A DNA stretch of 64,000 nt. It comes from a virus. Lineage: Duplodnaviria; Heunggongvirae; Uroviricota; Caudoviricetes. The notes below the pieces were generated by a model that had not been told where the DNA came from, did not search any database, and saw nothing but the letters and a program-made list of their open reading frames with translations. A program made the translations under genes and the position numbers. Location: the IMG/VR virus record IMGVR_UViG_3300042402_007287; one strand, given 5' to 3'. Positions 14,081 to 59,240 of the stretch are shown piece after piece (within the stretch, counting starts at the first letter, position 1; every line of letters begins with the position of its first letter).

Positions 14081-14083
14081 AAA

Positions 14084-14401: not shown

Positions 14402-14423
14402 ATCTACAAAGATAGTAAAAAAA

Positions 14424-15774: not shown

Positions 15775-15843
15775 AACTATAAATACTAATGGTTTCAGTA
15801 ATTATCTGAGGTAATGATACTATTTATTATCAAATTATAAGTT

Positions 15844-16212: not shown

Positions 16213-16611
16213 TTATTCCCCGTACATACTAGGTTTAAGACTCGGAAATTTCTTAGCGAATTTCTTTATATGAACACCTGCAATTGTGTTTGCCATGTTC
16301 TCTTCGGGTCCACCTATATCTTTAATAACATCTTTTTCTGATAATCCCATTTTTTGGAATTGATACTCATGTATCCATTCATGTGAAATTGTTCTTAGAA
16401 TATCTATCAGAAGTCTGTTTGATGCTAAGACTATTATTTCATCGTTCTTTCTGACCCCTGTGGTCATTTCACCTTTTCTTTGATTAGATAAAACTATTGT
16501 TATAGGTTTTTCCAATGCCATTTCAGACTGTAGAAACTTCAGAAAAATTTTAATTGTTTCCAAATCATTACTTGGAACGAGATTATCTGTATTTTTGAGT
16601 TTAACTTTCAC
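16213..16611 (-). CDS. HExxH motif protein, putative Zn-metallopeptidase-like; 132 aa
   Basis: ISHEWIHEYQ. Same length and core as 2336..2734. Confidence 0.4.
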   Translation of the reverse strand: MKVKLKNTDNLVPSNDLETIKIFLKFLQSEMALEKPITIVLSNQRKGEMTTGVRKNDEIIVLASNRLLIDILRTISHEWIHEYQFQKMGLSEKDVIKDIGGPEENMANTIAGVHIKKFAKKFPSLKPSMYGE

Positions 16612-16624
16612 CGATAATAAATAT

Positions 16625-16828
16625 TCAAACTATTTCAATCTGATACAATTTAGCAAACTTTTGAATAACATTTGTAAGTCCGTTGGGTAAATTGTCCGAG
16701 GTTATTTTGAAAATTGGGTTACCTTTGAGGTTGTCTACATAAACAAAATCTAATTGATAAAGTTTTTCCATACTCGGGTAATAATGGTATAAACCCTTTT
16801 TGAAATTTTCAAGAATTTGAGAGTTCAT
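16625..16828 (-). CDS. hypothetical small protein
   Basis: 67-aa ORF. Confidence 0.3.
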   Translation of the reverse strand: MNSQILENFKKGLYHYYPSMEKLYQLDFVYVDNLKGNPIFKITSDNLPNGLTNVIQKFAKLYQIEIV

Positions 16829-17927: not shown

Positions 17928-19056
17928 TTGATACGGTTGGAGCGGACAATTTTTGGGTTATTTCGTTTTTCCAATTTACCAAGAAATCACTTGTATCGTA
18001 ATAAGCTCTGGTTTCAATCAAAAATGAAGAACCTGGCCAAGGATTTACTCTGTCTGAAGACAACATATAATCCAAATTTCTCAGTAATTCTTCATTACGA
18101 TTCAAACTTTGAAGTAGGAAATTCAAATATATATAATGTTCGTTTCTCATTGGAGCAAATTGTCCAGCCCAATAATAGTGTTGAATTGCATCTTCTAATT
18201 GACCCAAAAATTGAAGGGCTTGTCCCATCATGATGAATGCGAAGTATGCCATTTCATCAAAACGAGTGGCGGTTTTTTGATTATGCCAATCGTGAACTTG
18301 TTCTAAAAACCTATTGTAATACCAAATACTTCTTCGAGCATACTCTTCGGAGTGAAGTCTTCCAAATGGAAGTTCATCAGGATTACCATAACAATCTGCA
18401 TAACTTTTAGCTATATACCATAAATGATATGGGTCATCTTTAACTTTATTACCAACAACTTTATCAATTTCCAATTCTAAAGCGTCTCTCAGAAATTTAC
18501 GAGGAACATGCCATGTTTCTCCATCTTGGGAAACTAAATGACGAAAACTGAAAGGTAGATTTATTCTTACAAAACTTTCTCCGATTTCAGGTAAATGTAT
18601 TGTTTCGTGACGTTTATCATCCGCAAAAAACCATGGTAACTTAGCATTCCATAACCAAGTTCTGAAATACTTTATATCTGCAGCAGATGCGGGTACATTG
18701 AAGCTATCAATAGTGGTGTCAGAAAGAATATTCCAATCGAAATCTTCATCAATTTGTAATCTTTCGTCCGCATCCATTCTCAAAATCCAATCACAACCAT
18801 GATTTGCTTGAAGGGCTCTTTGGAGTGTATGGTTTCTATTCCAACCTGGATAGTTCCAATCTATCTCATATGTGAATCCAGGAATACCTCTTTCATTAAA
18901 AAATTTCTCGATGATTTCTTTCGTGTTATCCTCTTTTCCATTACATTGGATTACCCAATAAGAAATGTGTGGAGCAACAGATTCTAACATTCTTGTGATG
19001 GTTTTGGCTTCATTGCCTACCATCGCGTTCATACAGATTTTTGGTTTGTTATTCAT
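17893..19056 (-). CDS. glycosyltransferase-like protein with an N-terminal GT-A/GT2-like region
   Basis: ICMNAMVGNE...WILRMDADERL contains a DxD-like motif. Sits directly downstream of glf. Confidence 0.45.
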   Translation of the reverse strand: MNNKPKICMNAMVGNEAKTITRMLESVAPHISYWVIQCNGKEDNTKEIIEKFFNERGIPGFTYEIDWNYPGWNRNHTLQRALQANHGCDWILRMDADERLQIDEDFDWNILSDTTIDSFNVPASAADIKYFRTWLWNAKLPWFFADDKRHETIHLPEIGESFVRINLPFSFRHLVSQDGETWHVPRKFLRDALELEIDKVVGNKVKDDPYHLWYIAKSYADCYGNPDELPFGRLHSEEYARRSIWYYNRFLEQVHDWHNQKTATRFDEMAYFAFIMMGQALQFLGQLEDAIQHYYWAGQFAPMRNEHYIYLNFLLQSLNRNEELLRNLDYMLSSDRVNPWPGSSFLIETRAYYDTSDFLVNWKNEITQKLSAPTVSNDSFRFDPSQF

Positions 19057-20296
19057 AAATGTAATTCATTACTTCTTCTTCTTCGAAATATTTTTTTATT
19101 GCCACGTGATTTTGGAATCTTTGTGATTCTTGTTTTTCTTCATCCCAATTCCAATCTTTGAATCCCAAGGATAAAATTCTTTCGTGGATTGCTTTATCAT
19201 AAAAGTCTCTAATAATTCTTGCTCTTCGATTTATATCTTGAGCATTATTATCAACCGTACTGTTACGATTATTCCATTGCAAATATAGGACACGTTTTAC
19301 GTGAATAAACCGTGTATGTAAAAAACTTCTTATTATAATCTCCAAATCATCCGCAACAGGAGTAAGTTTATTGTGTCCACCTATTTTGTGATATAGGTTT
19401 CTTTCCCACATTCTCACGTGGTCGGGCATGGATATATTGAACCTTATTGATAATGGATTTATATCAGGGTACCAGTGTGCCAAAATTTTTCTACCATCTA
19501 CTTCAACCCAAGTGTGACCAGCATAACCAAAATCAAAAAAATTATCATGTCTTGCATACCAACCACCTGTCCAATCATGGTCATAAGATTTCATCTCACC
19601 ATCCTCATATAATTCACAAACATCCGTATATAAAAATCCTGCATCAGGATATTTGATGATGGCATCATTACAAGTGGATAAACACTCTGTGGTCAAAGTA
19701 TCATCATGGTCCAACTCGACCAACCAATCACCATCACATAACATAGCTGCTCTATGTTTGGCCAAACCTACATTACCACCCGATAACGGGTAAATACGAT
19801 GAATTTTAACCCTGTAGTCTTTCGAAGAAATTTCTTTCAATAGGTTCCATGTTATTTCGTCAGGCGAATCGTCTACTACGACCCATTCCCAATTAGTCCA
19901 AACTTGAGACCTCAGACTCTCATAAGTTCTTTTAATTCTTTCATAAGTCTTATATGCTGGTGTGAAGACCGAAAATCGTGGTCTATGGTATGTAAGGTTT
20001 TTGTAAATAGCTTCCTTACATATCGTGTTAGCCAAATCATAATCACCCAAAGGATTTTCTATGAAAACATAAATTTGTTGTAATTGATAATGAGGTACAT
20101 TCACGTGAGTCCCAATCGAAACAATAATATCAGGTCTATACTTGGAATAATCTTCGGCCACATTATCTGTGTAAGGTAAAGAATAAACCATGATTTCTTC
20201 CCAAAGCCCTTCTTCAGAATAAATTGAAGTTTGTAATAATTCCTCACCCTGTTTGTACCAATTATAAACTATCGCACTCGGTTTTTTTGTCTTCAT
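19049..20296 (-). CDS. family-2 glycosyltransferase
   Basis: FTPAYKTYERIKRTYESLRSQVWTNWEWVVVDDSPDE...DWLVELDHDD shows a GT2 core with a DxD motif. Confidence 0.6.
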   Translation of the reverse strand: MKTKKPSAIVYNWYKQGEELLQTSIYSEEGLWEEIMVYSLPYTDNVAEDYSKYRPDIIVSIGTHVNVPHYQLQQIYVFIENPLGDYDLANTICKEAIYKNLTYHRPRFSVFTPAYKTYERIKRTYESLRSQVWTNWEWVVVDDSPDEITWNLLKEISSKDYRVKIHRIYPLSGGNVGLAKHRAAMLCDGDWLVELDHDDTLTTECLSTCNDAIIKYPDAGFLYTDVCELYEDGEMKSYDHDWTGGWYARHDNFFDFGYAGHTWVEVDGRKILAHWYPDINPLSIRFNISMPDHVRMWERNLYHKIGGHNKLTPVADDLEIIIRSFLHTRFIHVKRVLYLQWNNRNSTVDNNAQDINRRARIIRDFYDKAIHERILSLGFKDWNWDEEKQESQRFQNHVAIKKYFEEEEVMNYIYE

Positions 20297-22299: not shown

Positions 22300-22824
22300 T
22301 TAAATTATTTTTTTGAAGTTATAAGCCACTGAATATCTGTGGTTTGCAAAACTTGAACTTGGTGGTCTACCTGAATGTGGGATAGAAGAATCGAAAATTA
22401 CCAACCTACCAGGTTTGGGTATTATGCTCGCAATTATCTCTGTATCAGGTGATAAACTTTCAGTAAAAATGGTTTCCGAACCCCAATTTATGTTCCATTT
22501 GGGATTACCATATAAAAGTGCTGTGATATCTGACTCATCTGTATGGAGAGCTGTAACATCTCCTCTCTTGTATGCATTTCGGAATGCTGAAAAGAATTTG
22601 TATTTTCCTGATATTATTGGTAAAGAATGTAATCGACCCAAAATCTTCCAATATATGGTGTTCTCAGGTATCTCTTTTATATAACCAATATCAGCACCTC
22701 CCTCTAATTGAACTTCGGAAAGATAAGGGACCTTTTCTTCCAAAATCCAAGAACTCTCCCTTAGAGTTTTGAACAACTCAGTTATTTCCTCAGGGGTGAG
22801 AAACTCATCAAAAACCTCAATCAT
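22300..22824 (-). CDS. 2OG-Fe(II) oxygenase, prolyl-4-hydroxylase-like
   Basis: An HxD...H...RxS triad: ALHTDESD ... IPHSGRP ... HRYSVAY. Confidence 0.6.
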   Translation of the reverse strand: MIEVFDEFLTPEEITELFKTLRESSWILEEKVPYLSEVQLEGGADIGYIKEIPENTIYWKILGRLHSLPIISGKYKFFSAFRNAYKRGDVTALHTDESDITALLYGNPKWNINWGSETIFTESLSPDTEIIASIIPKPGRLVIFDSSIPHSGRPPSSSFANHRYSVAYNFKKII

Positions 22825-38420: not shown

Positions 38421-39404
38421 ATGAATTGGCAAGAAATTATAAGTGATTTTAATGATGGTGACACATGGGCGTTGAAATACTTCAACAATGATTATGATGA
38501 TTTTTTTGCGGTGCTTAAATCGAAAAAACTTTTTCATTTATTAGACCCATTAGCCAATGACAGTAGAGAATGGCAAAACCAATATTTCATTTGGACCATG
38601 GAGAATGATAAACAAGAGTTTTACAAATACATGAATCGCATTTTAGGAGATGTTCAAATTGATGAAAAAGGTGATGCTTATTTGATTTTGGACGACAGAA
38701 AAGAATTAGCAACACTTTTTTGTGATAGTAGTAGAGATTTTTCACGAGACACCATTGAGAATATCTTGGGTGAGGATAATGATTGGTTTGAATATTATTC
38801 AGAAACAACTGATGATGTTCATAGAGACGTGGTTGAGGAATTAAATCAAGAAAATTTGAAAACTTTATACAAGAAGATTATAGATGATTTAAAAAATGAA
38901 CGGGTAGAAACAGAGACTGAGGAACTAGAATTGATTGCCTCTGAACAAGGTCATCCAGACTACGTTGAAGTAAACGAATCAAACATAGCCAGAATTGTGG
39001 ATGATAGAGATACATTCAATGAATTGATGAAAAAATATTTGGATATTGAAGGTGATTTGTATAGAATACACTCCGACGCTTACAATTCAGCATATGAGAG
39101 TCAAATTTATAAAAATATAATGAATGAATTGGGTGATTATTTCTATGAGGGTGAGTGGATATCATCCCCACATCCTTATAAAAAAGATACTATGAAGTAT
39201 CAATACAAAATGAAAATAAAGGATTTCGAAGGACAAATTTACGATTTCTTACATAACAAGTATTCAAACGCAATTGAAGATGAGGCGTATTTTATTAGAA
39301 TATTAGACGAAAACAATGATTGTTTGTACCCAAGGATTTCTGACTACCCCGATAGTAGAGAGGTCGATAAAAATATAAACATGTATTTCAGTGATTTTTT
39401 CTGA
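38421..39404 (+). CDS. hypothetical acidic protein
   Basis: 327-aa ORF. Confidence 0.5.
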   Translation: MNWQEIISDFNDGDTWALKYFNNDYDDFFAVLKSKKLFHLLDPLANDSREWQNQYFIWTMENDKQEFYKYMNRILGDVQIDEKGDAYLILDDRKELATLFCDSSRDFSRDTIENILGEDNDWFEYYSETTDDVHRDVVEELNQENLKTLYKKIIDDLKNERVETETEELELIASEQGHPDYVEVNESNIARIVDDRDTFNELMKKYLDIEGDLYRIHSDAYNSAYESQIYKNIMNELGDYFYEGEWISSPHPYKKDTMKYQYKMKIKDFEGQIYDFLHNKYSNAIEDEAYFIRILDENNDCLYPRISDYPDSREVDKNINMYFSDFF

Positions 39405-40186
39405 TGAATAATAAAAGTATAAATACCATTCATGAGAGGGTTCAAAGTCCACCTAAAAACCCCCCGAAGAATATTAAAAACATTCTATCTAAGATTAGAT
39501 TGTTTGAGATATTCCCAAAGATTTTTGCCGTTGTAATTAAAGATGATAAACTCCGTGCAAGAGTTTTCATGCGTTATCAAGAATTTTATGAGTCAGACTC
39601 AGAGACATTCAGAGGACAAGGTTTTAAATGGGTCGATTTTGTCAAATTCTATAAGGAAAAAACTAAGAATGACATTTTCACTTACCATGAAGATTGGTCT
39701 GGTTATAATTTACCGTGTGATTCAATCGAATCGTGTATAAAAGTAATTCCTGACATAAATTATTTTGACCTTATTATGTTTTCAATTATTGATACCATAA
39801 AAGAAAAAACAGGTAACAACAATTTTTATTTAATCGGTATCGACCAAACAGATGGAGAGGACTTGAGTTTAATCTATCATGAATTAGCACATGGGTTGTG
39901 GTATAGTTCACCTAACTATAAAAACTTACAATCTTATAATATCAATAACCTAAATCCATCTACATTAGATTCCATGACAAGAAAAATCAAAAACATGGGT
40001 TATGGTGAAAATGTAATTGATGATGAGATTCAAGCATATTTATCTACAGGGATTTTACCTGATATGGCAAGAATAAAAGACATCAAGAAAGCTCAGGTGA
40101 CCTTCAAGAACTCTTTTGATAAATTCGTAAGTAAAATAAGTCTCAAAGAGATTCCAATAAATTGGGGGGTAGATTTACAAAAATGA
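39404..40186 (+). CDS. HExxH motif protein (LIYHELAHGLWY), putative metallopeptidase-like
   Basis: 260 aa. Possible paralog of the next gene. Confidence 0.45.
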   Translation: MNNKSINTIHERVQSPPKNPPKNIKNILSKIRLFEIFPKIFAVVIKDDKLRARVFMRYQEFYESDSETFRGQGFKWVDFVKFYKEKTKNDIFTYHEDWSGYNLPCDSIESCIKVIPDINYFDLIMFSIIDTIKEKTGNNNFYLIGIDQTDGEDLSLIYHELAHGLWYSSPNYKNLQSYNINNLNPSTLDSMTRKIKNMGYGENVIDDEIQAYLSTGILPDMARIKDIKKAQVTFKNSFDKFVSKISLKEIPINWGVDLQK

Positions 40187-41034
40187 ATAAAATAAGAAAT
40201 ATAATCACCAATCTAATATTGGAGGCACAGAGATATAAATTTTCTGATGATGTGAGAGATAGAATGAAATCCGTCACAGAAAAATTATGGTCTGATAGAA
40301 ATAAACCTTATAAAGGAAAAGAACTAGTTGATGTCATTCCTTTTAAATTAGCCGATGGAGTAGAGGGTTTAGCTAGAGTCGTGGTAAACCCAAGACTACC
40401 CTACATGGGTCAGATGGGTACAAAACCTCAAAAGTCAGTCGACCCGGCAGATATTGTAATCGAAGTAAATCCAAAACACTACGAGTCAAAAAAAACACTT
40501 TATCTTACACTATATCATGAAATGATACATGCCAGTGACCCAACACAATCTCATTTGTTTAGTCCCAAATATATGGTGACTTACAATGAGAAATCAGATA
40601 AAGATTATTGGGGTCATCCAATAGAATTTTTTGCAATTTCAAATGAATTTTTGGAGGGTTTGGTTCTCGAATTTGAAAGAAGAGTTAAAAGAAACAGAAA
40701 AATTGAAAACCTACAATTTTTAGAAAAATCATTAAAAAATATAATCAATTATTTTGCCAAGGGTGACCCACTATCTAAACTCTCGAAGGATATTTTATTT
40801 AGAATAAATGATGAACATTTGGGAAATGACCTTATCAGAGTTTTCAAAAATTTAACCACCGATAATCCTCAACTTGCAGATTTTATGTCTGAGAGAGGAG
40901 GAGAAGAACCTTACTACATTTATTATGTTGAATTGATTAAAAAGTATAACCCAGAAATTTGGAAAAAATTTCTGTCGATGTTATACCAAACTGGTTTCGA
41001 AATAAGAGATTTAATTCAAAAGACCGAAATCTAA
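40183..41034 (+). CDS. HExxH motif protein ([13 protein letters not shown]); start set to the ATG at 40183 ([16 protein letters not shown])
   Basis: The track start at 40162 overlaps the upstream gene. ATG 40183 forms an ATGA junction. Confidence 0.45.
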
Positions 41035-44000
41035 ATAAGTCCTCTTTCCTTGGCTATTGTCTCTAACTCATCAAGTTTTATTTCTTTAGATTCCAAAATC
41101 AAGGATTGTTCTTTAATGGCTTCTAAACAAACAGCTATTACTTCAGCATATTTTACCATGAAATATGCGTTCTCGGTGTTTTTCTTGAAAACCAATTCAG
41201 GTAATATATGACCTATTTCTTGGGCAATGAATCCAATATCATGTTTACCTGATTGGGATGTTTCATCATTTAATTTATTCCAATAGAATGAAACACCTCT
41301 CAATTTCAGGACTTTTTCTAGTGGGGATTGTATTTCTTTTACGTCCTTTTTTAATCTTAGGTCAGAACCAGTGGTACCTTGTGCACCTTGAGCACCTTGT
41401 AAACCATTTGGACCGGTTGCACCTTGTGCACCTTGTGGACCTTGACCACCTTGTGGTCCTTGGGCACCTTGACCCCCCTGAGGTCCTTGAGCTCCTGTGG
41501 CACCACCACCGCCTTGAGCACCTTGGCCTCCTTGCGGACCTTGAGCACCTTGAGCACCTTGGGCACCACCACCGCCTTGAGAACCTTGTCCTCCGGCGGT
41601 ACCCTGAGCCCCTGTGGGACCTTGAGAACCTTGTCCACCTATTGGACCTTTGGGACCTTGAGCTCCTTGAGCACCTTGAGCACCTCCAGGTCCTGTTGGA
41701 CCCTGAGCCCCTTGAGCTCCTCCTCCACCTTGGGAACCTTGACCTCCCGTAGGACCTTGAGCCCCTTGAGCACCACCAGGTCCTTGAGCTCCTTGAGCAC
41801 CTTGACCTCCCGTAGGACCTTGAGCCCCTTGAGCACCACCAGGTCCTTGAGCTCCTTGAGCACCTTGACCTCCCGTAGGACCCGTAGGTCCTTTGGGACC
41901 AATAGGACCAGGAACACCAGTTGCACCGTTTGCACCGATATGACCTTGTGGTCCCTGTGCACCTTGTCCTCCCTGAGCACCTTGTGCACCTTGACCCCCT
42001 TTAGGTCCTGTGATACCTGTAGGTCCAGTAGGTCCTTGCGCACCTTGTGCACCTTGACCTCCAGTTGTTCCTTGAAAACCTTGTGAACCGACGGGCCCTT
42101 GAGCACCTTGGGCACCTTGTCCACCACCTCCACCTTGAGCACCTTGTGAACCTGTGGCTCCTTGTGCTCCCTGAGCACCTTGTCCGCCACCAGGACCAGT
42201 TGCACCTTGAGCTCCTTGTGAACCTTGAGCTCCTTGTGCACCCTGTCCTCCTTGTGAACCTTGACTACCAACAGCTCCTTGAGCACCTTGAGCACCTTGA
42301 GCTCCGGCGACGCCCTGAGAACCTTGAGCTCCTGTGGCACCTTGTGCACCTTGGGAACCTTGAGCACCTTGCCCACCTTGTGAACCTTGTGCACCTACGG
42401 GACCTGTCGTTCCTTGTGCTCCTTGTGCACCCTGTCCTCCACCTCCACCTTGAGCACCTTGGGCTCCAACTATACCTTGAGCTCCTTGTGCACCTTGTCC
42501 TCCTCCGGCACCTTGAGAACCTTGGGCTCCTGTGGGTCCTTGAGAACCCTGAGCACCTTGACCTCCTGTAGCTCCTTGAGCTCCTTGGGCACCTGTTGTA
42601 CCTTGAGCCCCTTGGGCACCTTGTCCTCCTTGGGAACCTTGAGCACCTTGGGCTCCTGTTGAACCTTGGGCTCCTTGAGCTCCTGTTCCACCTTGTGAAC
42701 CTTGTGAACCTTGGGCTCCTGTTGAACCTTGAGCACCTTGGGCTCCTGTTCCACCTTGGGAACCTTGGGCTCCTGTTGAACCTTGAGCACCTTGGGCTCC
42801 TTGAGCACCTTGTGGACCTTTAGGACCTTGGGCACCTTGAGCACCTTGTCCTCCCTGAGCTCCTTGAGCTCCTTGACCACCTTGGGACCCTTGCGCACCT
42901 GTTAAACCTTGTGAACCTTGTGCTCCTTGAGCACCCTGTCCACCTTGGGAACCTTGAGCTCCTGTAGGACCGAGAGCCCCTTGTGCTCCTTGAGCACCTT
43001 GCCCACCTTGAGCTCCTTGAGCTCCTGTGAGACCGACAGCCCCTTGAGCTCCTTGAGCCCCTTGTCCACCCTGAGCTCCTTGAGCACCTGTAGGACCAAC
43101 TGCGCCTTGAGCACCTTGAGCACCTTGTCCCCCTTGGGAACCTTGGGCTCCTGTTGTACCTTGGGAACCTTGAGCACCTTGGGCACCTTGTCCACCTTGT
43201 GCCCCTTGAGCACCTGTGAGACCTTTAGCCCCTTGTGAACCTTGAGCGCCCTGTCCACCCTGTGCTCCTTGCGAACCTTGAGCACCTGTTGAACCTTGGG
43301 CTCCTTGGGCTCCTTGACCACCTTGAGAACCTTGAGCTCCTGTGGGTCCCAAAGTTCCTTGTGAACCCTGAGCACCTTGTCCTCCTTGAGCTCCTTGTGA
43401 ACCCTGAGCACCTGTAAAACCTTGTGAGCCTTGTGAACCTTGACCACCTTGTGAACCTTGTGCACCTGTAGGTCCTTGTGACCCTTGAGCACCTTGAGCA
43501 CCTTGTCCCCCTTGAGCACCCTGAGAACCTTGGGCACCTGTTGAACCTTGGGTACCCTGTGCTCCTTGACCCCCTTGAGCTCCTTGAGCACCAGTAGAAC
43601 CTTGTGAACCTTGAGCACCCGTTGGACCTTGAGGTAATTTAGCTCCGACCCATCCTGTTGAATTTATTAAATCTCCCGAGGCATTTGCAAGTTTGTTAGT
43701 AAGTGTTATTGACCCCCCACTGACTCTGAGGTTTGGATAGGAAGTACTTATTCTTGCTAAAGTGGAAGTTAAAGTTCCAAATTTCAACTCACCATTCTCC
43801 ATATACCAGTTAGTGGCAGTTCCTCCAGAATCTATAAGTTGAAAATTGGCTCCATCAGGATAAACAATTATATTTTCATCACCTGAAAATTCAGTACATT
43901 TTCTAACCTCCGTGACAGTTCCTGTCCTATTTATCTTCCAAACCGTTGTATCAACAGAATCCTTTAGATATAAATTAGGTAATAATGGAGAGAAAGTAAT

Positions 44001-44138
44001 AACATTAGTATAACCTGCATCTGTATAGACTACACAACCTCCACTTAGTGATGGACACGGTGTATAAATAGTCTGTGATGCCACAGAATTACACGCATTT
44101 AGATAACTCGTCCCTGAATATACTACGTATGATGCCAT
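41031..44138 (-). CDS. collagen-like (Gly-X-Y) fibre protein, 1035 aa, with a C-terminal intramolecular-chaperone auto-processing (peptidase S74) domain
   Basis: About 730 residues of GAQGSQG-type triplets. The C-terminus [12 protein letters not shown]...FYWN... matches the S74 S|DxRLKxNI cleavage motif of phage tail fibres. Confidence 0.85.
41753..41878. repeat. perfect 63-nt tandem duplication inside collagen-like gene 1
   Basis: The unit encodes a repeated 21-aa [21 protein letters not shown] block. Confidence 0.6.
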
Positions 44139-47122
44139 TAGTTCACTACTTGTTTTAATCTATTTATTCTATCTTTCACTGACAATATTCTTTTTTGATT
44201 CTCTTTAATTGATGCGAAGGCTAAACTAACCAAGAGTCCATAATCCATAGATTTGTATCCATCAGTTGGGTCAGTGTCAACAATCTCAGGAAATACTTTT
44301 TCTACATCTTGAGCTATGAATCCATAAGTATCACCTGTGAACGCTTCTTTAGCATTCAGGTGCTTATGAAATTTAATTTTAGGATGTTCATGGTCCCAAG
44401 TAAATTTAACACCTTGGATTTGTTTCAGACGGGTGAGAGGTTCTTTGAATTCAACTATATTATCTTTTAATCTTTTATCTGACTTAGCGCCTTGTGCTCC
44501 CTGAGCACCTGTGGCACCTGTTGGGCCTGTTGGGCCTGTATTCCCCTTGAAACCTGTTGGGCCTGTTGGGCCTGTGGCACCACCAACACCTGTCGGACCT
44601 TGAGCCCCCTGTGGTCCTGGTACACCTGGAGCACCCTGAGTACTTCCAGCAAATCCTGTGGCTCCTTGAGCACCTGTGGCTCCTGTTCCACCAGGAGCAC
44701 CTGTAGGACCCGTGGCTCCTGTAGCTCCTTGGGACCCTTGTGCACCTGTGTTCCCTCCACCTCCAGTCAATCCTTGTGGACCTTGGGCTCCTTGCGGACC
44801 AGGACCGGGTCCTGTAGAACCTTGAGCACCTTGAGGTCCTGTAGAACCTTGTGCTCCCGAAGTAGCACTTTGAGAACCTTGAGCACCTTGAGCACCTTGA
44901 ACTCCAGGTGCTCCCTGAGCCCCTTGATTAGCACCCTGTGCACCTTGTGCTCCTTGAGCTCCTTGAACTCCAGGTGCCCCTTGAGCGCCTTGGTTAGCAC
45001 CCTGTGCTCCTTGACTTCCCTGAGTACCTTGACCTCCCTGAGCACCTTGAGCACCTTGTGTCGTATTATTTGGTCCAATTGCACCTTGTGCACCTTGTGG
45101 ACCTGTAGCACCTTGTGCACCCTGATTGGCTCCTTGTGCTCCCTGAGAACCTTGAGCACCTTGAGCTCCTTGAGCCCCCTGTGCTCCCTGATTAGCACCT
45201 TGTGCACCCTGTGAACCCTGAGCACCTTGTGGACCTGTCGCACCTTGGGCTCCTTGATTAGCACCTTGAGCACCTTGAGCACCTTGAGCTCCTGTAGCAC
45301 CCGTAGCACCTTGTGCTCCTTGATTAGCACCTTGGGCTCCTTGTGCTCCTGTAGCTCCTTGTGCACCGACTGCTCCTGTAGCACCGGCACTTCCACCTTG
45401 AGCACCTTGTGCCCCTTGGGGACCTGTAGCACCCTGAGCTCCTGCCTGTCCTGTTATACCACTTTGGGCACCTTGAGCTCCTTGAGGACCTGTTGCACCT
45501 TGCGCACCCGTGGCACCTGCACTTCCACCTTGGGCTCCTTGAGCACCTTGAGGTCCTTTTGGACCTTGAGCGCCCTGAGCACCTGGACTGGCACCCTGGG
45601 CTCCCTGAGCACCTTGAGCACCTTGAGGACCTGTAGCACCCTGAGCTCCTGTATTTGCACCTTGAGCCCCCTGAGCACCTTGAGCACCTTGAGGACCTGT
45701 GGCGCCTTGAGCACCTTGTACACCCCCTTGGGCTCCTGTCGCCCCCTGAGCACCTTGAGGTCCTGTGGCGCCTTGAGCACCTGTATTTGCACCTTGGGCT
45801 CCTTGAGCACCTTGAGCTCCCGCTGCTCCTGTTGCACCCTGAGCACCTTGTACTCCTCCTTGAGCTCCTATTGCTCCTTGTGCACCTTGTGGTCCTGTGG
45901 CACCTTGAGCTCCTTGGGTACCTCCTTGAGCACCTGTAGAACCTTGTGCACCTTGAGCACCTGTTGCACCTTGGGCACCTTGAAGTCCACCTTGTAATCC
46001 CTGAGCCCCTTGAGCTCCTTGAGGTCCTGTTGCACCTTGTGCTCCTTGTACTCCTCCTTGTGCACCTTGTGCTCCTTGTACCCCCGTAGGACCTGTAGCC
46101 CCTTGAGCACCTTGTACTCCTCCTTGAGCACCTTGAGCTCCTTGAGCACCTTGACCACCTTGAGCACCTTGAGCTCCTGTGTTTGCCCCTTGGGCCCCTT
46201 GAGCACCTTGTGGTCCTGTAGTACCTATAGCACCTTGAGCACCTTGTACTCCTCCTTGAGCACCTGTAGCACCTTGTGTACCCTGAGTACCCTGAGCACC
46301 TTGTGCACCAGTATTTCCTCCCTGAGCACCTTGTGCACCTTGAGTTCCCTGTGCACCTTGAGCACCTTGGGCTCCGGTATTGGCTCCTTGAGCTCCCTGA
46401 GCACCTAAATCACCTGTGGCACCGACGGCACCTTGAGCACCTTGAACTCCTCCTGTAGCACCTACCGCTCCTTGGGCTCCTTGGGGACCTGTCGCACCCT
46501 GAGCACCTGTGTTTGCACCTTGAGCACCTTGAGCACCTTGAGCTCCCTGACCACCCTGAGCACCCTGAGCTCCAACTGTTCCTCCTTGAGCACCTTGAGC
46601 TCCTTGGTTACCTTGAGCTCCTGTGGCTCCTTGAGCACCCGTATTTCCACCCTGAGCTCCTGTGGCACCCTGAGCTCCTTGAGACCCAATTGTACCTTGA
46701 GCACCTTGTGTTGTGTTTGCCGCACCTTGTGCGCCTGTTGCTCCTTGGGCACCTGTAGCACCTTGAGCTCCTGTATTTGCACCTTGAGCTCCTTGAGCTC
46801 CCTGACCACCTTGGGCTCCCTGAGCACCTTGAGCTCCCTGAGCACCAGCGATACCGGCAGTTGGTCCGACCCAAACACCTCCAGAACCTATGAATTGTGA
46901 GGCGTTGAAATATAGTGACTGTGCGGAAGCCCCTGAGGTTGTGACACCATTGTCTGAACCTTTTGTACCAATTACAAAATTATTTGAAATTGACCCAGCA
47001 GACAGACTTATTGCGTCAGTTAAAACGTTGAATTGTAATTTATTAGTTCCATCATCAAAAATAAAATGAGGGTCAGTGTTCCACGTTCTACCGGTAGGAT
47101 ATATAATTACATTAGATGGCAT
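44138..47122 (-). CDS. collagen-like fibre protein, 994 aa, with a C-terminal S74 chaperone domain
   Basis: C-terminus [18 protein letters not shown]...[10 protein letters not shown]. Joined to the flanking genes by TAATG overlaps. Confidence 0.85.
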
Positions 47123-50100
47123 TATCTCAATTTAATTTCTAATTCGTCTACTTGTTTAGTTATCTCTTCAATAAATACTTGTTGTTCTTTTATACCTTCA
47201 ACTACAACAGAATTTAATTTCTTGTAGTCAATGTAATAATATCCATCAGGACCGATTCCAACAGCTTCAGGGAAATGAATTCTTACGTTTTGTGCAATTA
47301 GACCTATCTGATGTAATCTTCCCATCTGAGCAAAATATTCATACTCTTCTTTGGTACCCCAATTTTTTTCGTTCCAATCATACTCAACAGTTTCTATTTC
47401 CAATATTTTTATAAGAGAATCTTTCAAGGTTTCAATACCTGTTTTAAGTTTCACGTCAGAATAAGCACAAGCCTGCTGATAGGTACCATTACCACAAGTG
47501 GCGTTTAATGAATAACATGCACTATTCCATTGTTCCCAGTTATAAGTATTCCAATCACAAGTACCATTTGAACAATTCGTAGCATCGAAATATTTGTTTT
47601 GTGTGGCTGTGTAAGCAGTTTGAGTGTATGGATAAACGTTGGGTACAGTGATATTACAAACACCTACACATGGGTTTCTACTTCCTGTAAGAGCAATAAT
47701 ACTATTCAGTTGACATGTTACACCTCCAGGTCCAACAGCTCCTTGGGAACCTTGAGCACCCTGCCCTCCTGTTGCACCTAATGAGCCTTGTGTACCTTGA
47801 CCACCTGTAGGACCTTGTGGTCCTGTGGCACCTGTAGGTCCAGGTGCTCCTGTTGGTCCCTGAGGACCTTGTGGTCCAGTTGGACCAGGACCCCCTGTAG
47901 GACCTGTAGCACCCTGAGGTCCCTTTGGACCTTGTGGTCCTTGAGGTCCTGTGGCACCTCCTCCTCCTTGAGCACCTTGTGCCCCGCCAGGTCCTGTAGG
48001 ACCACCTGGACCTTGTGGACCTTGGGCTCCTGTGGCTCCAGTTGCTCCTTGAGGTCCTACAGCCCCTTGTGAGCCTGTGGCACCTCCCGCACCTTGGGGT
48101 CCAATAGCACCCGTGGCACCTGTATTTCCTTGAGGTCCTGTAGGACCCGTTGCTCCCTGTGCACCAGGATGTCCTGTATTACCTGACGGACCTTGTGGGC
48201 CAGTTGGACCGACCGCTCCTTGAGCACCAGGATGCCCCGTAGCTCCCGGTACGCCGGTCGGACCGGTATTTCCTTGAGCTCCTTGAGGTCCTTGGGAACC
48301 TTGTGAACCCTGAGCACCCGGACTACCTCCTGGTCCTGTAGCACCTTGTGCACCTGGATGTCCTGTGAAACCTGGTGCCCCCTCGTTACCAGTACCTCCA
48401 CCAGCACCTTGAGCACCAGGATGGCCAGTAGCACCTGTAGGTCCTTGAGGTCCTTTGGGTCCTATGGCACCTTGAGCTCCAGGATGTCCTGTACCACCCC
48501 CTTGTCCTTGAGACCCAGTAGGTCCACCTGCACCTTGTGCCCCCGGATGACCTGTCTGACCTTGAGCACCCGTTGCTCCCGCTGAACCTTGCGGTCCTTG
48601 CGCTCCAGGATGACCTGTGAATCCATTAGGTCCTTTTGGTCCGGCCGCACCCTGACTACCTTGGGCACCAGGATGTCCTGTAGCCCCTTGTGAGCCTTGT
48701 GGTCCTGTGGCACCTTGTGGGCCTTGAGCACCAGTGTGTCCTGTGGCTCCTTGTGAACCTTGTGGTCCTATCGCTCCTTGGGGACCTTGGGCACCTGGAT
48801 GACCTGTTCCACCACCCGCCCCTTGCGAACCTTGTGGTCCTGTGGCACCCTGAGCCCCTGTGTTACCTGTACCACCTGCGGGTCCTTGAGCTCCCTGAGG
48901 TCCTGTAGCCCCTTTCGGTCCAACCGCCCCTTGAGCACCTGTGTTACCTCCAGGCCCTGTTGGTCCTGTAGCACCTTGTGCACCAGAATGACCCGTATTA
49001 CCCGCAGGTCCTTGAGCTCCTTGTGGTCCTGTAGCCCCTGTCGGTCCTACCCCACCTTGGGCACCTTGAGCACCTGAAAGTCCTGTCGGACCAGTTGCTC
49101 CTTGTGGCCCCACAGCACCCTGAGCCCCCGTATTACCTGTGTCTCCTTTTGGTCCCACAGCACCTTGTGGTCCTGCAGGTCCTGTAGCTCCTGTATCACC
49201 TGTTGGGCCTGTGGTACCTGTGGCACCTTGTGGTCCCACATTACCTGTATTTCCTGTAGGTCCTTGTGGTCCCTTTGGACCAATCGCACCTGTGGGCCCT
49301 ACCGCACCAACATTACCTGTGAAACCTTGTGGACCAGGATTTCCTGTGGCTCCTTGTGCCCCTGTGTTTCCAGTATTCCCTTGTGCTCCTTTGGGTCCTT
49401 GAGCTCCTATAGCACCGGTGGGTCCAACGGCTCCTTGAGACCCTGTGACACCCGTAGGTCCAGGATTTCCTGTAGCACCCTGAGCGCCAGGATGTCCTGT
49501 ATTTCCTGTGGGTCCTGTTCCACCTGTGTTTCCTGTTGCACCTTGTGCACCTGAAAATCCTTTTGGACCTTGAGCTCCTTGTGGTCCTTGAGCACCTTGT
49601 CCACCTGTTGGTCCTACAGGTCCTTGAGCACCTGTATTACCTGTGGGTCCTGTAACCCCAATCGCACCCTGTGCTCCTGTATTACCAACGGCTCCCGTTG
49701 GTCCTTGTGGACCAGGGTGTCCACTTTGTCCTGTAGGTCCAGGGTTACCTGTATTACCTGGCGCACCTGCTGACCCTTGTGCTCCTGTGGCACCCTTGGG
49801 TCCATTGTTACCTTGAGCACCCGTATTTCCTTGTGCTCCGGCAGTTCCTTGAGCACCCTTAGGCCCAAATGTACCTTGAGCACCTTGAGGTCCTGTGGCG
49901 CCTGCAGCACCAATAGCACCTTGTGCTCCTGTGTTACCTATTGCACCCGTAGGACCTGTATTTCCGTTGAATCCTTTTGCACCCTGAGAACCAGCTATAC
50001 CTGTTGTGGGTCCAATCCAATTGTTTGTGGCATTTATTACCTGAACCCCTCCTATTGCAAGGTAATTTCCTACAAAAATAGTGTTTACTGAAACTGTAGA

Positions 50101-50283
50101 ATTTGCAGGGTCTACTGTCATCAAATTTGTATCACCAACAGTATTACCGCTGAATTTAATTTTACCTGAAGGTGTAACCGTCAGAATAACCTGACCCGTG
50201 GTACCCTCATAACTTATAAATGGAGTACGGTTAGCAGTCCTCTCAGTGAAATTACTCGGAACAATTAAAATATTTTTTCCCAT
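47122..50283 (-). CDS. collagen-like fibre protein, 1053 aa, with a Cys-rich domain of about 100 aa before the C-terminal S74 chaperone domain
   Basis: ...GVTCQLNS...[45 protein letters not shown]... Confidence 0.85.
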
Positions 50284-50396
50284 CCTTTTTAAATACTAAT
50301 GATAAATATCCAAATACACTAAATGTTTTGGAAATATTAGTTAGTCTTCATTATTTTTCAAAAATTAATTATGATTGAAGAAGTAATAAATATAAG

Positions 50397-51086
50397 ATGA
50401 AAATATTATCTAGAACATCTCGTGAATTTTTTGTAAATTCTCTCTCAGAGTTTATTTTATCTAAAATACAATTCAAAGAAAATTCTATAATTCAGGTTGT
50501 TGATTGTGAAAATTTTTACGTTGTAAAGGGGAAGACCACCTCTAAAGAAATATTAGATTTGAACAAAGTCAAAGACGAATTTTATACCAAAAATCCAGAC
50601 TTGAAAAATGAGAAGAAACTTCTAAATACCATAGATTTGATTGACTATGGGTGTAAACTATCAGAGGTGAAAAAATTTTCAGGCTTTTTTTATAACTCAG
50701 AGAATTGTAGTATCAAAAAAGAAATTTTAGAAATGGCGGACGAACTTGTCATTAGTTCTAAGTTTCCATTCGGTTATTCTTTGGAAATGGGACGACTTCT
50801 TTATTTCTTTGCAAAAAGACTAGTATACAATATACCACCTAATTTAGTTTTTGAGAAATTACTTCTAACGATAAAAAAAGATAAAGGTCAAATAGAAATC
50901 TTATTTCAAGAGGAAGATGGCACCGTCTCAGAAACTCTGAACTCTCTTTTTTTAGATTGTGTAGATACCAATGCTCAGAAATTCAAAAAGGAGGTCATCG
51001 AATCTAATTGGAACGAAGAACTAAATTTTTATGAGAAAGACTTAGATTTTTTAAAAAAGAAAATAAAAGGAATTATTTCAATTTAG
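50397..51086 (+). CDS. hypothetical protein
   Basis: 229-aa ORF divergent from the fibre operon. Confidence 0.5.
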   Translation: MKILSRTSREFFVNSLSEFILSKIQFKENSIIQVVDCENFYVVKGKTTSKEILDLNKVKDEFYTKNPDLKNEKKLLNTIDLIDYGCKLSEVKKFSGFFYNSENCSIKKEILEMADELVISSKFPFGYSLEMGRLLYFFAKRLVYNIPPNLVFEKLLLTIKKDKGQIEILFQEEDGTVSETLNSLFLDCVDTNAQKFKKEVIESNWNEELNFYEKDLDFLKKKIKGIISI

Positions 51087-51382
51087 ATAATCCCTAATTT
51101 TTTTTGATGTCCTCTTATAATATCTACGGCTTCCGTAAGCTCGTTGTAATTTTTTTCGGGAACATATAAAAAAGATTCATGTTTTTTAAGGTCTCCCTCT
51201 ATGACAAGTAAAGCAGGTATCATATCGTTGTCTGTTACTTTGGAAAATATATCATACTCTTCCTCGTATTCATCAATATCTCTATCGTGAAATTCGATTC
51301 CTTCTTTAACTAATAACTCTTTGAAGTCTTTGCAATGAGGACATCCCTTCATTGTATAAACTATAACAGATAATTTTGACAT
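51083..51382 (-). CDS. glutaredoxin / NrdH-like redoxin
   Basis: VIVYTMKGCPHCKDFKELL contains a CPxC active site. Confidence 0.7.
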   Translation of the reverse strand: MSKLSVIVYTMKGCPHCKDFKELLVKEGIEFHDRDIDEYEEEYDIFSKVTDNDMIPALLVIEGDLKKHESFLYVPEKNYNELTEAVDIIRGHQKKLGII

Positions 51383-51385
51383 ATT

Positions 51386-51712
51386 TTAATTTTGTAATAA
51401 ATTTAGAACTTCAAGAGTAGACATAACTCCCGCTTTTGAAAAAACTTCTTTTCCTTCTTTGAATATTTTGATTGTTGGTACGCTTCTGATACCCATCTCA
51501 CTCATTATGAATTCTCTATCTGAGTCAATGTCAAATTTATAAATTCCGTATTTTGGAGTATTTCCAGATTCTTTAGATAAATGCTCCTCTAATTTATCTA
51601 AATTAAACAACATCATTTTACAGGGTCCGCACCACGTAGCATATAAATCTAATATGAAGTTTTCTCTGTTATTGATTTTTTCTTTTAGTTCATTTGTTGT
51701 TAGTTGTTGCAT
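51386..51712 (-). CDS. trxA: thioredoxin
   Basis: WCGPCKMM active site. Confidence 0.8.
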   Translation of the reverse strand: MQQLTTNELKEKINNRENFILDLYATWCGPCKMMLFNLDKLEEHLSKESGNTPKYGIYKFDIDSDREFIMSEMGIRSVPTIKIFKEGKEVFSKAGVMSTLEVLNLLQN

Positions 51713-56441: not shown

Positions 56442-56591
56442 TGGAAGAATCTCAAGGTTGTAGTAAATGTAAAAAAAAATCTTTATTCAAGACTGTAACT
56501 CCGATGTTATTTTTCGGTTTTTACATATTAGCTTCAGCAATTTACGGTAACTACGTTCTTATTAAACTATTGATAAATTTTTTCAAGTAGG
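56442..56591 (+). CDS. small membrane protein, 49 aa (MEESQGCSKCKKKSLFKTVTPMLFFGFYILASAIYGNYVLIKLL...)
   Basis: Manual translation in the 365-bp gap between dam and dnaJ. Confidence 0.25.
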
Positions 56592-57500
56592 TCTATCAAA
56601 TTTGACATGTATTTTGATGAACATGTCTCCTGAACTGTATCCCTTACCCCTAAGCCTCAAAGGCTTCGAAGTGTCAAAATTTTTCGGAGCGGGAACTATA
56701 AGTTCTCCATCTGGGTGTGGTATTGAATATTTATCCTTCAATAGGTCCTCATAATTGAGATAAAGGTTATATACTAAATCACTACCCATTTTTTCGAATC
56801 CTTCGGAACTTTTCAATTCTATCTGAATCAAGAGGTCACCATAATTACCATTTCTATAGTCCCCCATACCCCGTATTCTCACGAATTGTCCACTATCAAT
56901 ACCTTTAGGTATGTTTATCTTTATTTCATTTGCATTACCTAAGGTACCTTTACCTGAACACTTATAACATTTATTTATGAGATTATATCCCCGTCCCTCG
57001 CAATTTGGACATGCCATCCGGACCTGTTGAACTAAAAATCCTGTACCGAATGTTTTCACAATAAAACCTGTACCTTCACATAATCCACAAATTGCCCTGT
57101 CCCCTCCTGTTCCTACGCAAGTATCGCAATGAAGTTCCCTGAAATATTGAATATTTTTTTCTTGTCCTAAATATGATTCTAAAGGGGTCAATTGAAGATT
57201 CAAAATCTTATCTGGTGCTGGATGGTTCCTTGGTGGTTGGAAATTTTGGTTCGAAAACATAGATGCGAAAAAGTCCGAAAATTCACTTCCGTTGTAGGGA
57301 TTAGATTTCTGAAAATCATATTTCTTTCTTTTTTCCTTGTTACTCAGGACTTCATATGCTTCATTGATTTCCTTGAATTTCTCCGCCCCTTGAGGGTTCA
57401 AGTCTGGATGATATTTTTTTGACAGGTTTCTATAACTCTTTTTTATATCATCTTCTGAAGCATTCTCTTCAACTTCTAATAATTTGTAGTAATTTTTCAT
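56583..57500 (-). CDS. dnaJ: DnaJ (Hsp40) co-chaperone: J domain plus a four-repeat CxxCxGxG zinc finger
   Basis: KNYYKLLEV...KKYHPDLNP...AYEVLS contains the HPD motif. Zinc-finger repeats CDTCVGTGG, CGLCEGTGF, CPNCEGRGY, CYKCSGKGT. Confidence 0.88.
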   Translation of the reverse strand: MKNYYKLLEVEENASEDDIKKSYRNLSKKYHPDLNPQGAEKFKEINEAYEVLSNKEKRKKYDFQKSNPYNGSEFSDFFASMFSNQNFQPPRNHPAPDKILNLQLTPLESYLGQEKNIQYFRELHCDTCVGTGGDRAICGLCEGTGFIVKTFGTGFLVQQVRMACPNCEGRGYNLINKCYKCSGKGTLGNANEIKINIPKGIDSGQFVRIRGMGDYRNGNYGDLLIQIELKSSEGFEKMGSDLVYNLYLNYEDLLKDKYSIPHPDGELIVPAPKNFDTSKPLRLRGKGYSSGDMFIKIHVKFDRPT

Positions 57501-58880: not shown

Positions 58881-59089
58881 GTGAATTTGATAAATGTTAT
58901 AATGTAAGACAATGATAGACCTAAAATTATAAGTTCCCTGTTAGTATAAACAATTTTTTTTGGTTCTTTATCTAACAGGGTACTTATAATCCTAAATAGG
59001 TTTCTGAATACAATCAATATTGTAAAAACAAATATAAAAAAAAATGTTGATTCAATATTATGCATCTTTTTCTGATTTCTTGTGTTCAA
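58877..59089 (-). CDS. small membrane protein
   Basis: Hydrophobic stretch FFFIFVFTILIVF. Confidence 0.35.
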   Translation of the reverse strand: MNTRNQKKMHNIESTFFFIFVFTILIVFRNLFRIISTLLDKEPKKIVYTNRELIILGLSLSYIITFIKFT

Positions 59090-59240
59090 GAATTTCCCCT
59101 CTGAATTTTTGAAGTAAAGCTTTCAACTCTTGAGCTGTCTTTCTAGCTCTTGTACCTGCACTCTTGTTACCTTTAAAAAACTTGGTAGCATCAACAGATA
59201 AAACTTCAGTCAATTCTTTAATTTGTTCTAATGTTTCCAT
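59058..59240 (-). CDS. bacterial histone H1/Hc1-like DNA-binding protein (Bacteroidota type)
   Basis: FFKGNKSAGTRARKTAQELKALLQKFRGE matches the ...GN.SAGTR.RK..QELK.L... signature. Confidence 0.65.
   Translation of the reverse strand: METLEQIKELTEVLSVDATKFFKGNKSAGTRARKTAQELKALLQKFRGEILEHKKSEKDA

Follow-up and report, generated by a model that had tools for sequence, protein, structure and literature searches.

How does a collagen-like fibre of some 1000 residues acquire its register when nothing follows the collagen except a chaperone domain of a kind that cuts itself away, and what is left at the end of the fibre afterwards? This question is raised by a locus in a 64,000-nucleotide stretch of viral DNA (IMG/VR record IMGVR_UViG_3300042402_007287, Caudoviricetes; the whole stretch is called the window below), where positions 41031-50283 of the minus strand hold three consecutive genes for collagen-like proteins, each ending in a Peptidase_S74 (PF13884, hereafter S74) domain. 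We named the genes gA, gB and gC in the order of their transcription; an earlier note on the same DNA had numbered them 3, 2 and 1. We hold it to be probable, with rather better than even confidence, that the three genes form an operon and encode paralogous, homotrimeric collagen-like fibres of the virion, in which the S74 domain would nucleate the collagen and then remove itself.

The layout of the cassette is as the earlier note had described it, except that the genes lie on the minus strand and its third gene is transcribed first. gA (1053 aa, 47122..50283) is followed by gB (994 aa, 44138..47122) and gC (1035 aa, 41031..44138), and at both internal junctions the start codon overlaps the preceding stop codon by one base in the sequence TAATG. 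Pfam places both of the families proposed in that note in all three proteins, namely Collagen (E = 3e-94, 1.7e-65 and 8.5e-69 in gA, gB and gC, respectively) and Peptidase_S74 (E = 7e-9, 8e-13 and 5.5e-14), the latter always exceeding the gathering score (from the highest down, 52.6, 49.0 and 36.2 bits against a cut-off of 22), and it finds no further domain in any of them. The G+C content reaches 48-58% over the three genes, compared with about 30-35% in the flanks, as is expected from their Gly, Ala, Pro and Gln codons. Open reading frames (ORFs) that occur in other frames over the collagen DNA were dismissed as by-products of the repeats.

The S74 domains form the last 109-114 residues of each ORF (gA aa 942-1053, 47122..47460; gB aa 881-994, 44138..44482; gC aa 925-1035, 41031..41366; all on the minus strand) and were delimited with Pfam and by alignment, with profile matches to Protein Data Bank (PDB) structures in addition for gA (alignment A2; A-, P- and L-numbers are our labels for alignments, related proteins and related contigs or loci). 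They share 31-34% pairwise identity and have in common the motifs S-D-x-x-L-K, G[FL]IAQ, PE.V and IKE. The C-terminal chaperone motifs that had been read from the sequence are present, as SDVKLK in gA, SDKRLK in gB and SDLRLK in gC, with the Lys five residues past the Ser, and the Ser, the Asp and this Lys are invariant in the three paralogues and in every orthologue. The profile of the domain matches the solved chaperones of S16 gp37 (6f45), MYRF (7dc3) and a tail fibre (8jov). Its nearest relatives are cyanophage tail-fibre proteins at about 40% identity, and tblastn locates it in 894 phage records, with tail-fibre and tailspike annotations among the records listed.

Characterised S74 domains trimerise, help to fold the trimeric part upstream of them and then cut themselves off by means of a Ser/Lys dyad (PMC4690869, PMC7917993). 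In T5 pb1 the cleaved bond is Thr1263-Ser1264, so that the Ser departs with the chaperone, and the spacing of the Ser1264/Lys1269 dyad is the one found here (PMC4690869); S16 gp37 is cut at S^SDRRIKK, and the release of the chaperone exposes the distal end of the fibre (PMC7917993). The Ser-Asp bond, to which auto-processing had been assigned, is therefore not the one that these precedents point to, since in both of them the cleaved bond precedes the Ser. The predicted scissile bonds are Tyr941-Ser942 in gA, where Ser942 and Lys947 occupy the dyad positions, Lys880-Ser881 in gB and Gly924-Ser925 in gC.

What lies upstream of these bonds differs between the chains. In gB the collagen ends in …GAQGAK|SDK, the final triplet GAK being followed by SDKRLK, and in gC in …GTTG|SDL, followed by SDLRLK, so that in both the collagen runs straight into the chaperone, as the earlier note had seen. 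In gA the collagen is separated from SDVKLK by a domain of 85 aa that contains 8 Cys and many aromatic residues (aa 857-941; 47461..47715, minus strand; composition and alignment A5), and it is true, as had been remarked, that neither gB nor gC has such a domain. The gA domain varies strongly among lineages while the adjoining S74 domain is conserved (alignment A5), and because of this variability beside a conserved chaperone it is likely to be a receptor-binding tip.

The direct junction of gB and gC is retained throughout the relatives of the window, which were found by way of gA relatives (P0216, P0234) and with the convergent neighbour gene as bait (A4). The cassette is present in at least six lineages (window/L020, L016, L018, L030, L021-L025 and L027-L029) and is syntenic in L016, L018, L020, L022-L025, L027-L029 and L030, the last from IMG/VR. 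Wherever the contig permits, the order is the same, a gA-type gene (module, collagen, Cys-rich domain, S74; orthologues are P0216, P0234 and those of L020, L030 and L024) being followed by one of the gB type and one of the gC type, with stop codons that overlap the next start codon. The gap between collagen and Ser is 0 to -2 residues in every gB- or gC-type protein (for example GPP|SDRRLKDNI and GP|SDSRFKKNV); the gB junction is kept in the orthologues from L016, L018, L020, L022, L024, L027 and L030, and about 20 clusters of contig-end fragments, closest to the gC S74 domain at 54-62% identity, have the same direct junction. About 65 of the 120 best metagenomic matches bear both Collagen and S74 according to Pfam. 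Among the 55 other metagenomic proteins of this kind, none has the direct junction; their spacers measure 25-999 aa and exceed 100 aa in 43 of them.

At the opposite end each chain carries a module of about 85-95 aa, which presumably fastens the fibre to the virion (gA aa 1-94, 50002..50283; gB aa 1-89, 46856..47122; gC aa 86-170, 43629..43883; all on the minus strand). The modules are homologous among the paralogues and across lineages, with 23-29% pairwise identity between gA, gB and gC, and they close with W-x-G right before the first triplet; P9, W89 and G91 are invariant in the alignment of paralogues and lineages (A7). An AlphaFold2 (AF2) model built from 9 sequences is all-beta with low confidence (pLDDT 56), and Foldseek found nothing in PDB for this low-confidence model at E <= 0.001. 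The module profile, run as a word-indexed protein search, recovered nothing besides the query's own fragment, and an exhaustive search with gC aa 1-170 yielded genuine module homologues in P0250, P0251, P0257, P0261 and P0265. Multi-stretch matches of the same query to NHL and FG-GAP propeller proteins were taken as noise from beta-strand repeats.

In gC the module is preceded by an extension of 85 aa with 4 Cys (aa 1-85; 43884..44138, minus strand), which is absent from the gC orthologues of other lineages, as these start at the module. The extension is only 29% identical to that of the close relative L020, compared with 89% in the collagen; the first half of the module has diverged as well, and from about residue 126 on, identity between the two proteins is about 89-100%. 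Nowhere else is the cassette hypervariable between close relatives, and a 43-aa stretch of the extension is 53% identical to part of P0264, an unrelated Pro/Thr-rich protein. The extension could be a swapped specificity or adaptor domain at what would be the 'wrong' end of the fibre. The proximal region of gA varies in another manner: in the orthologues P0216 (L016; aa 117-352) and P0234 (L018; aa 111-331) the N-terminal module and a short first stretch of collagen are followed by a globular insert of about 220-235 aa, and only then by the main shaft; the gA of the window lacks this insert.

In gB and gC the Ser has only collagen before it, and this conserved arrangement is most simply explained by an S74 trimer that registers and nucleates the collagen itself. 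From the architecture, its conservation, the junctions and the matching of lengths described below, we infer the trimeric state, the direction of folding, the cleavage, the location in the virion and the function of these proteins as follows. Each chain would consist of the all-beta N-terminal module of about 90 aa, a triple-helical shaft of about 215-226 nm (about 218 nm in gA, computed at 0.286 nm per residue) and the C-terminal chaperone. The S74 domains would trimerise first, and the trimer would then fix the register of the chains and nucleate the triple helix at its C-terminal end, from where the helix would zip toward the N-terminus. Finally, S74 would remove itself through autoproteolysis by the Ser/Lys dyad of the bond before the Ser. 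The collagen helix itself would thus be the client that the chaperone serves in gB and gC, and S74 would resemble a procollagen C-propeptide that cleaves itself, or a foldon that removes itself. After maturation gB and gC would be rods that end in bare collagen, and gA would end in the variable 8-Cys knob. That gB and gC would mature into tip-less fibres, as had been proposed, is a fair inference from the conserved junction, but gC is not simply head-less, given its lineage-specific Cys-containing extension at the other end.

Several points weigh against this picture. The AF2 monomer models are too poor for use (for the tip with S74, from 3 sequences, pLDDT is 38 and the terminal helix alone is confident). 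A fibre without a distal domain has no obvious binding function, and a hypervariable extension at the presumed proximal end of gC does not fit a simple arrangement of anchor, shaft and tip. The N-terminal module has no relative in PDB or PHROGs, and among the approximately 40 ORFs of the window that were scanned, PHROGs, Pfam and NCBIfam revealed no gene for a capsid, terminase, portal, sheath, tail or baseplate, so that these may be 'tail' fibres or fibres of another kind on the virion. Finally, in T5 pb1 two residues of the preceding beta-helix, Arg1250 and Asp1239, also take part in catalysis and serve as a folding sensor (PMC4690869), and no conserved Arg or Asp was found upstream of the Ser in the collagen of gB or gC, orthologues included; in the place of a beta-helical client that could supply such residues, gB and gC have collagen and gA has its Cys-rich domain. 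The chemistry of gB and gC may hence differ from that of pb1, or their cleavage may fail.

If cleavage did fail, the S74 domains of gB and gC would stay in place as distal knobs or docking platforms and the fibres would not be tip-less. Besides the sensor residues, which in pb1 belong to a beta-helix and have no counterpart in collagen, this is favoured by the 89-94% identity of the S74 domains between the window and L020, which places them with the best-conserved parts of the proteins. However, the Ser-Asp pair and the Lys at +5 are invariant in all gB and gC orthologues, although the lineages are just about 55-60% identical in the neighbouring gene, and all characterised S74 domains that bear the dyad cleave themselves (PMC4690869, PMC7917993). 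We consider it unlikely that the chaperone is retained.

A released chaperone might instead make room for a separately encoded adhesin on the exposed end of gB and gC, as with gp38 on S16 gp37, where autocleavage of the chaperone exposes the docking surface for gp38 (PMC7917993). Candidates could be sought in three genes without known relatives (ORFans, of 283, 260 and 327 aa; 38421-41034), which adjoin the cassette also in L016 and other lineages. The one next to gC (40162-41034, plus strand; 283-290 aa) converges on it, the stop of gC sharing 4 nt with its end, and is retained beside the cassette in all lineages found with the 283-aa protein as bait; the two upstream of it occupy 39404-40186 and 38421-39404 on the strand opposite to the cassette. 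Yet a bare collagen end would offer a very small docking surface, these conserved neighbours are on the opposite strand, and the 283-aa protein, with its HExxH motif (YHEMIHA) and a weak match to Peptidase_M91, seems more likely to be an enzyme; neither a gp38-like nor a glycine-rich adhesin was detected. A docked adhesin is, in our opinion, rather improbable. The HExxH protein may have a role in the assembly or processing of the fibres.

The lack of recognised structural genes nearby also bears on whether the products belong to the virion at all, for they might be a secreted or cell-surface collagen-like matrix or adhesin made from the phage genome. The best NCBIfam matches are indeed the bacterial adhesins Lcl and Scl1/2, but these scores lie under the family cut-offs and arise through the collagen part only. 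The chains have neither a signal peptide-like N-terminus nor an LPXTG anchor and open instead with the conserved module, and their S74 domain is that of the phage records noted above, with their tail-fibre and tailspike annotations. We judge a non-virion role to be extremely improbable, and we continue with the reading of the three proteins as virion fibres.

The shafts themselves are of two kinds in the window. According to run tables and autocorrelation, the collagen of gA (aa 95-856; 47716..50001, minus strand) is a single run of 254 Gly-X-Y triplets with a periodicity of 21 aa, in which GHP occurs 11 times, and that of gC (aa 171-924; 41367..43628, minus strand) is a single uninterrupted run of about 251-252 triplets with a periodicity of 21 aa, or 63 nt. 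In contrast, the 250 triplets of gB (aa 90-880; 44483..46855, minus strand) are distributed over 33 runs: seven triplets are followed by one extra residue, or by four residues at four places, which gives a period of 22 aa or 66 nt (30.7 copies in Tandem Repeats Finder, TRF) and autocorrelation peaks at 22, 44 and 66. There are about 32 such interruptions, which occasionally read NTTQ or SATS. In the 120 best-scoring collagen-like relatives from metagenomes, uninterrupted runs reach at most 196 triplets. All three shafts are nearly uncharged, with no Arg, at most 3 Asp and Glu together and 3-11 Lys each; the X position is mainly Ala, Pro, Ser or Gly and the Y position mainly Gln or Thr. Pro fills 12-37% of the X positions and 0.4-8% of the Y positions, a low imino-acid content.

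In any one genome the three collagen lengths are matched, and from genome to genome they change together (about 450-800 aa, or about 130 to 230 nm). The collagen spans of gA, gB and gC are, in aa, 762/791/756 in the window and likewise in L020, 514/543/519 in L016, 523/537/533 in L030 and 352/464/446 in L018, where gA has the extra globular insert of about 220 aa; where gA is cut they are 804/764 for gB and gC in L024, and at least 654 for gB and 653 for gC in L022. Over six genomes the spans of gB and gC correlate with r = 0.999. Because their physical length is equal within a genome, the three fibres probably act as a set, from equivalent attachment sites. Length also appears to be held constant over time. 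Between the window and L020, which are 87%, 89% and 83% identical in the amino acid sequences of gA, gB and gC, each gene differs by about 390-430 synonymous and 107-171 nonsynonymous codons, and gA and gB show zero indels despite about 430 synonymous and 107-132 nonsynonymous differences. These mostly synonymous changes, with no indel in DNA that is prone to slippage, indicate purifying selection on both the sequence and the length of these two genes.

Such matching could be expected if gA, gB and gC were the three chains of one ABC heterotrimeric collagen, the paralogous S74 domains selecting the chains in the way procollagen C-propeptides do and the Cys-rich domain of gA forming a monomeric tip. 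There are exactly three genes, always together and translationally coupled; their triplet numbers agree within a genome (254/250/252, 175/167/166 and 174/164/176), the periodicity of seven triplets is common to all three chains, and the tip is found on one chain only. But the approximately 32 interruptions of gB, absent from gA and gC, would break the register about every 22 residues, and the S74 domain of gA is set 85 aa beyond the end of its collagen. The periodic interruption is retained in gB orthologues, but in the L024 lineage it is the gC-type paralogue that is interrupted (230 triplets in 38 runs) while the gB-type protein is a single run of 268 triplets, so that there the spans match and the triplets do not. 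Known S74 domains, moreover, form homotrimers. We regard the ABC molecule as highly unlikely. It is very unlikely, too, that the triad is a single device in the broader sense, which would comprise either such a heterotrimer, with chain selection and register set by S74 and one monomeric Cys-rich tip, or a lateral bundle of three length-matched homotrimers; if true, prokaryotic viruses would have a counterpart of collagen assembly directed by propeptides, and the co-variation in length would be explained. Three separate homotrimers are favoured over the ABC heterotrimer, since the interruptions of one chain are unmatched in the others, since triplet numbers (268 and 230) disagree in L024 where spans agree, and since the gA chaperone is offset from the collagen.

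A tandem of two 63-nt units, 21 aa each, in the collagen of gC (41753..41878, minus strand; units 41753-41815 and 41816-41878) is perfect, as the earlier note had reported, with 63 of 63 positions identical and an identity that extends 17 nt leftward and 4 nt rightward, and it had been taken as a sign of ongoing expansion and contraction. However, there was no net expansion in comparison with L020, whose proteins are about 87% identical to those of the window: in L020 both units occupy the same position, and they match each other at 56/63 and the units of the window at 50-53/63 positions. Given their presence at the same place in genes of identical length, the two units are ancestral and were homogenised recently in the lineage of the window, the length of the gene being unchanged. 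One metagenome contig (L002) is without one of the 63-nt copies, and near-identical contigs differ by in-frame variants of 36, 63 and 72 nt in gC and by an additional 183 nt in gB (giving a gC of 1002 or 1011 aa and a gB of 1055 aa). These within-population variants may be real polymorphism, or they may be artefacts of short-read assembly, in which repeats collapse or expand.

Collagen genes of this type are also poorly treated in public data. Public gene calls shred them, as in L016, where many small ORFs are annotated within gB and gC (13201-17575), and most of the database 'proteins' nearest to the gC S74 domain (P0001-P0120) are contig-end fragments of 85-190 aa. Fibres of this type are under-represented in protein catalogues because assemblies break in their repeats.

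The earlier note had gone on to suggest that the fibres are hydroxylated and glycosylated, from a frequent Lys in the Y position and from nearby genes for a 2-oxoglutarate (2OG)-Fe(II) oxygenase and for galactofuranose (Galf) and family 2 glycosyltransferase (GT2) functions, by analogy with the collagen of mimiviruses. The window does encode a PF13640-type oxygenase of 174 aa (22300-22824; E = 3e-8), a UDP-galactopyranose mutase (Glf) and two GT2 glycosyltransferases (16809-20296); as with the mimivirus collagens and L230, viral collagen-like genes thus share a genome with an oxygenase and glycosyltransferases. Lys in the Y position turned out to be rare, though, with 11/254 triplets in gA, 3/250 in gB and 5/252 in gC, or 1-4%, and Pro in that position amounts to 20 (11 of them in GHP-G sites), 5 and 1, or 8%, 2% and 0.4%. 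Neither are the enzyme genes close to the cassette: the oxygenase is 18 kb and the Glf and GT2 genes are 21-24 kb away, with many unrelated genes between. The oxygenase scores 64 bits against a cut-off of 240 with the NCBIfam family FlmC, which we take to belong to a flagellin-modification cluster; its relatives in 89 phage records are all from cyanophages, small oxygenases at about 30% identity, and its single PDB match is a 'putative hydroxylase' (E = 4.5e-6). By these matches it resembles FlmC-family and cyanophage small oxygenases and not a prolyl 4-hydroxylase (P4H) or lysyl hydroxylase, so that no collagen hydroxylase is evident, and no bifunctional lysyl hydroxylase/glycosyltransferase (LH-GT) is present.

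The combination of a collagen hydroxylase with abundant Lys or Pro in the Y position, on which the mimivirus analogy depends, is thus not seen here, and the analogy finds no specific support; a further difference is that the virus here infects bacteria. Thr is another matter, as it occupies 87, 51 and 39 of the Y positions in gA, gB and gC. In BclA of Bacillus the Thr of GPT triplets is O-glycosylated, and the Thr-rich Y positions of the fibres could, by analogy, be O-glycosylated as well. In the Synechococcus virus S-PRM1 (L009, NC_055761.1 122963-129963) a gene for an 1824-aa protein that ends in S74 is followed by one small gene and then by two genes for 2OG-Fe(II) oxygenases, so that a recurrent neighbourhood of fibre and oxygenase genes is possible, of a kind that the window lacks. 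Taking the Y-position Pro of gA, the Thr residues and the S-PRM1 arrangement on one side, and the rare Lys, the distances and the affinities of the oxygenase on the other, we find it quite doubtful that the fibres are Lys- or Pro-hydroxylated and glycosylated by the products of these genes.

As to the source of the locus, we conclude on sequence grounds that the window belongs to an uncultured freshwater bacteriophage with a large genome, of about 200 kb or more; the source lakes are those of JGI 3300008114-3300008120 and 3300045399. The related contig L016, which bears the syntenic cassette, is 221,653 bp long; two relatives are present in IMG/VR, and an identical gA locus occurs in at least 97 blocks of metagenome assemblies (JGI, ENA, NCBI). 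Neither the locus nor its flank had a nucleotide match by Megablast in 50,697 phage records, and tblastn with a neighbouring gene gave no match either. Neighbouring genes, used in scans of viral_contigs and genome_contigs, brought up no confirmed relative, and the exact sequence of the 555-aa protein had no entry. The window and its extensions encode a sigma-70 factor, Amidase_2, T4 endonuclease V, D12 and N4/N6 DNA methyltransferases and an Hc1-like protein, besides a UmuC-type Y-family polymerase with DUF4113 (12456-13661), a C39-family peptidase (9667-10368), a full-length DnaJ (56583-57500) and adjacent genes for thioredoxin and glutaredoxin (51083-51712); most ORFs of the window belong to no known family in Pfam, PHROGs and NCBIfam scans. 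Phage origin is supported by the sigma-70 factor, Amidase_2, T4 endonuclease V, the DNA methyltransferases and the IMG/VR entry itself. A eukaryotic giant virus or a polinton-like virus was rejected as the source on account of the bacterial sigma-70, Amidase_2 and the UmuC-type polymerase with DUF4113, together with GTG starts and overlapping stop and start codons.

Two smaller features may be mentioned here. A promoter-like site, TTGAAA-16-TAATAT (50334..50361, minus strand), lies in the 113-nt gap upstream of gA, as weak evidence from a consensus scan only. A 60-aa gene at about 59058-59240 (minus strand; L001 1044-1226), kept in L016, has a match to PF07432, the family of the chlamydial histone H1-like protein Hc1.

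Collagen-like phage fibres, S74 chaperones and fusions between them, which are frequent in metagenomes, are already known. New are the clade-conserved junction of collagen and S74 with zero gap, the conserved cassette of three length-matched genes, uninterrupted runs of about 250-270 triplets and the regular 22-aa interruption. A conserved clade with S74 directly on collagen points to a self-removing domain for the nucleation and registration of collagen. Recombinant bacterial collagens need a foldon or a V-domain, which is left on or cut off, and a domain that leaves by itself and yields a native collagen end would be useful in practice. The cassette also raises the questions of what purpose a head-less fibre of about 220 nm serves, and of why three types of fibre are equal in length in each genome and free of indels despite slippage-prone repeats.

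With the chaperone-bearing fibres and spikes of phages (K1F endosialidase, T5 pb1, S16 gp37 and GA-1 gp12; MEROPS S74 / PF13884) the cassette shares the C-terminal domain of about 110 aa with S-D-x-x-x-K, G[FL]IAQ, PE.V and a terminal helix, the distal position on a trimeric fibre and, presumably, trimerisation followed by self-release. It differs from them in that the client in gB and gC would be a collagen triple helix abutting the Ser, not a triple beta-helix or beta-prism, and from T5 pb1 in the absence of the upstream sensor residues. Characterised S74 clients are beta-structured: those of K1F and T5 are triple beta-helices or beta-prisms, and that of MYRF is a beta-helical stalk (PMC8326128). 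Fusions of collagen and S74 have been reported in polinton-like viruses (PMC12220804), and these, like the proteins from uncultured phages, have the same order of collagen repeats and C-terminal S74, but the other proteins that we compared have a spacer where gB and gC have none, and the conserved length-matched cassette of three genes sets the present system apart. To Scl1/Scl2, Lcl and BclA the fibres are similar in a hydroxyproline-independent Gly-X-Y repeat, through which the NCBIfam models match, and in Y-position Thr and Gln like those of the Thr/Gln-rich class. Unlike these, they lack a V-domain and a C1q-like head as well as the anchor, their shafts are almost uncharged, and their uninterrupted runs (about 252-254 triplets) are 3-5 times longer.

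A functional parallel would be found in animal procollagen. The procollagen C-propeptide and the T4 fibritin foldon trimerise at the C-terminus, set the register and nucleate a zipper that runs from the C- to the N-terminus, and the propeptide is later removed. The likeness is one of function only, since Pfam detects Collagen and S74 alone and no homologous trimerisation head of the COLFI or C1q type in gA, gB or gC. A difference would also lie in the removal, which is carried out by a separate protease in procollagen and would be autocatalytic here; the S74 domain on collagen would thus do in cis the job that the C-propeptide and BMP1 do together in animals.

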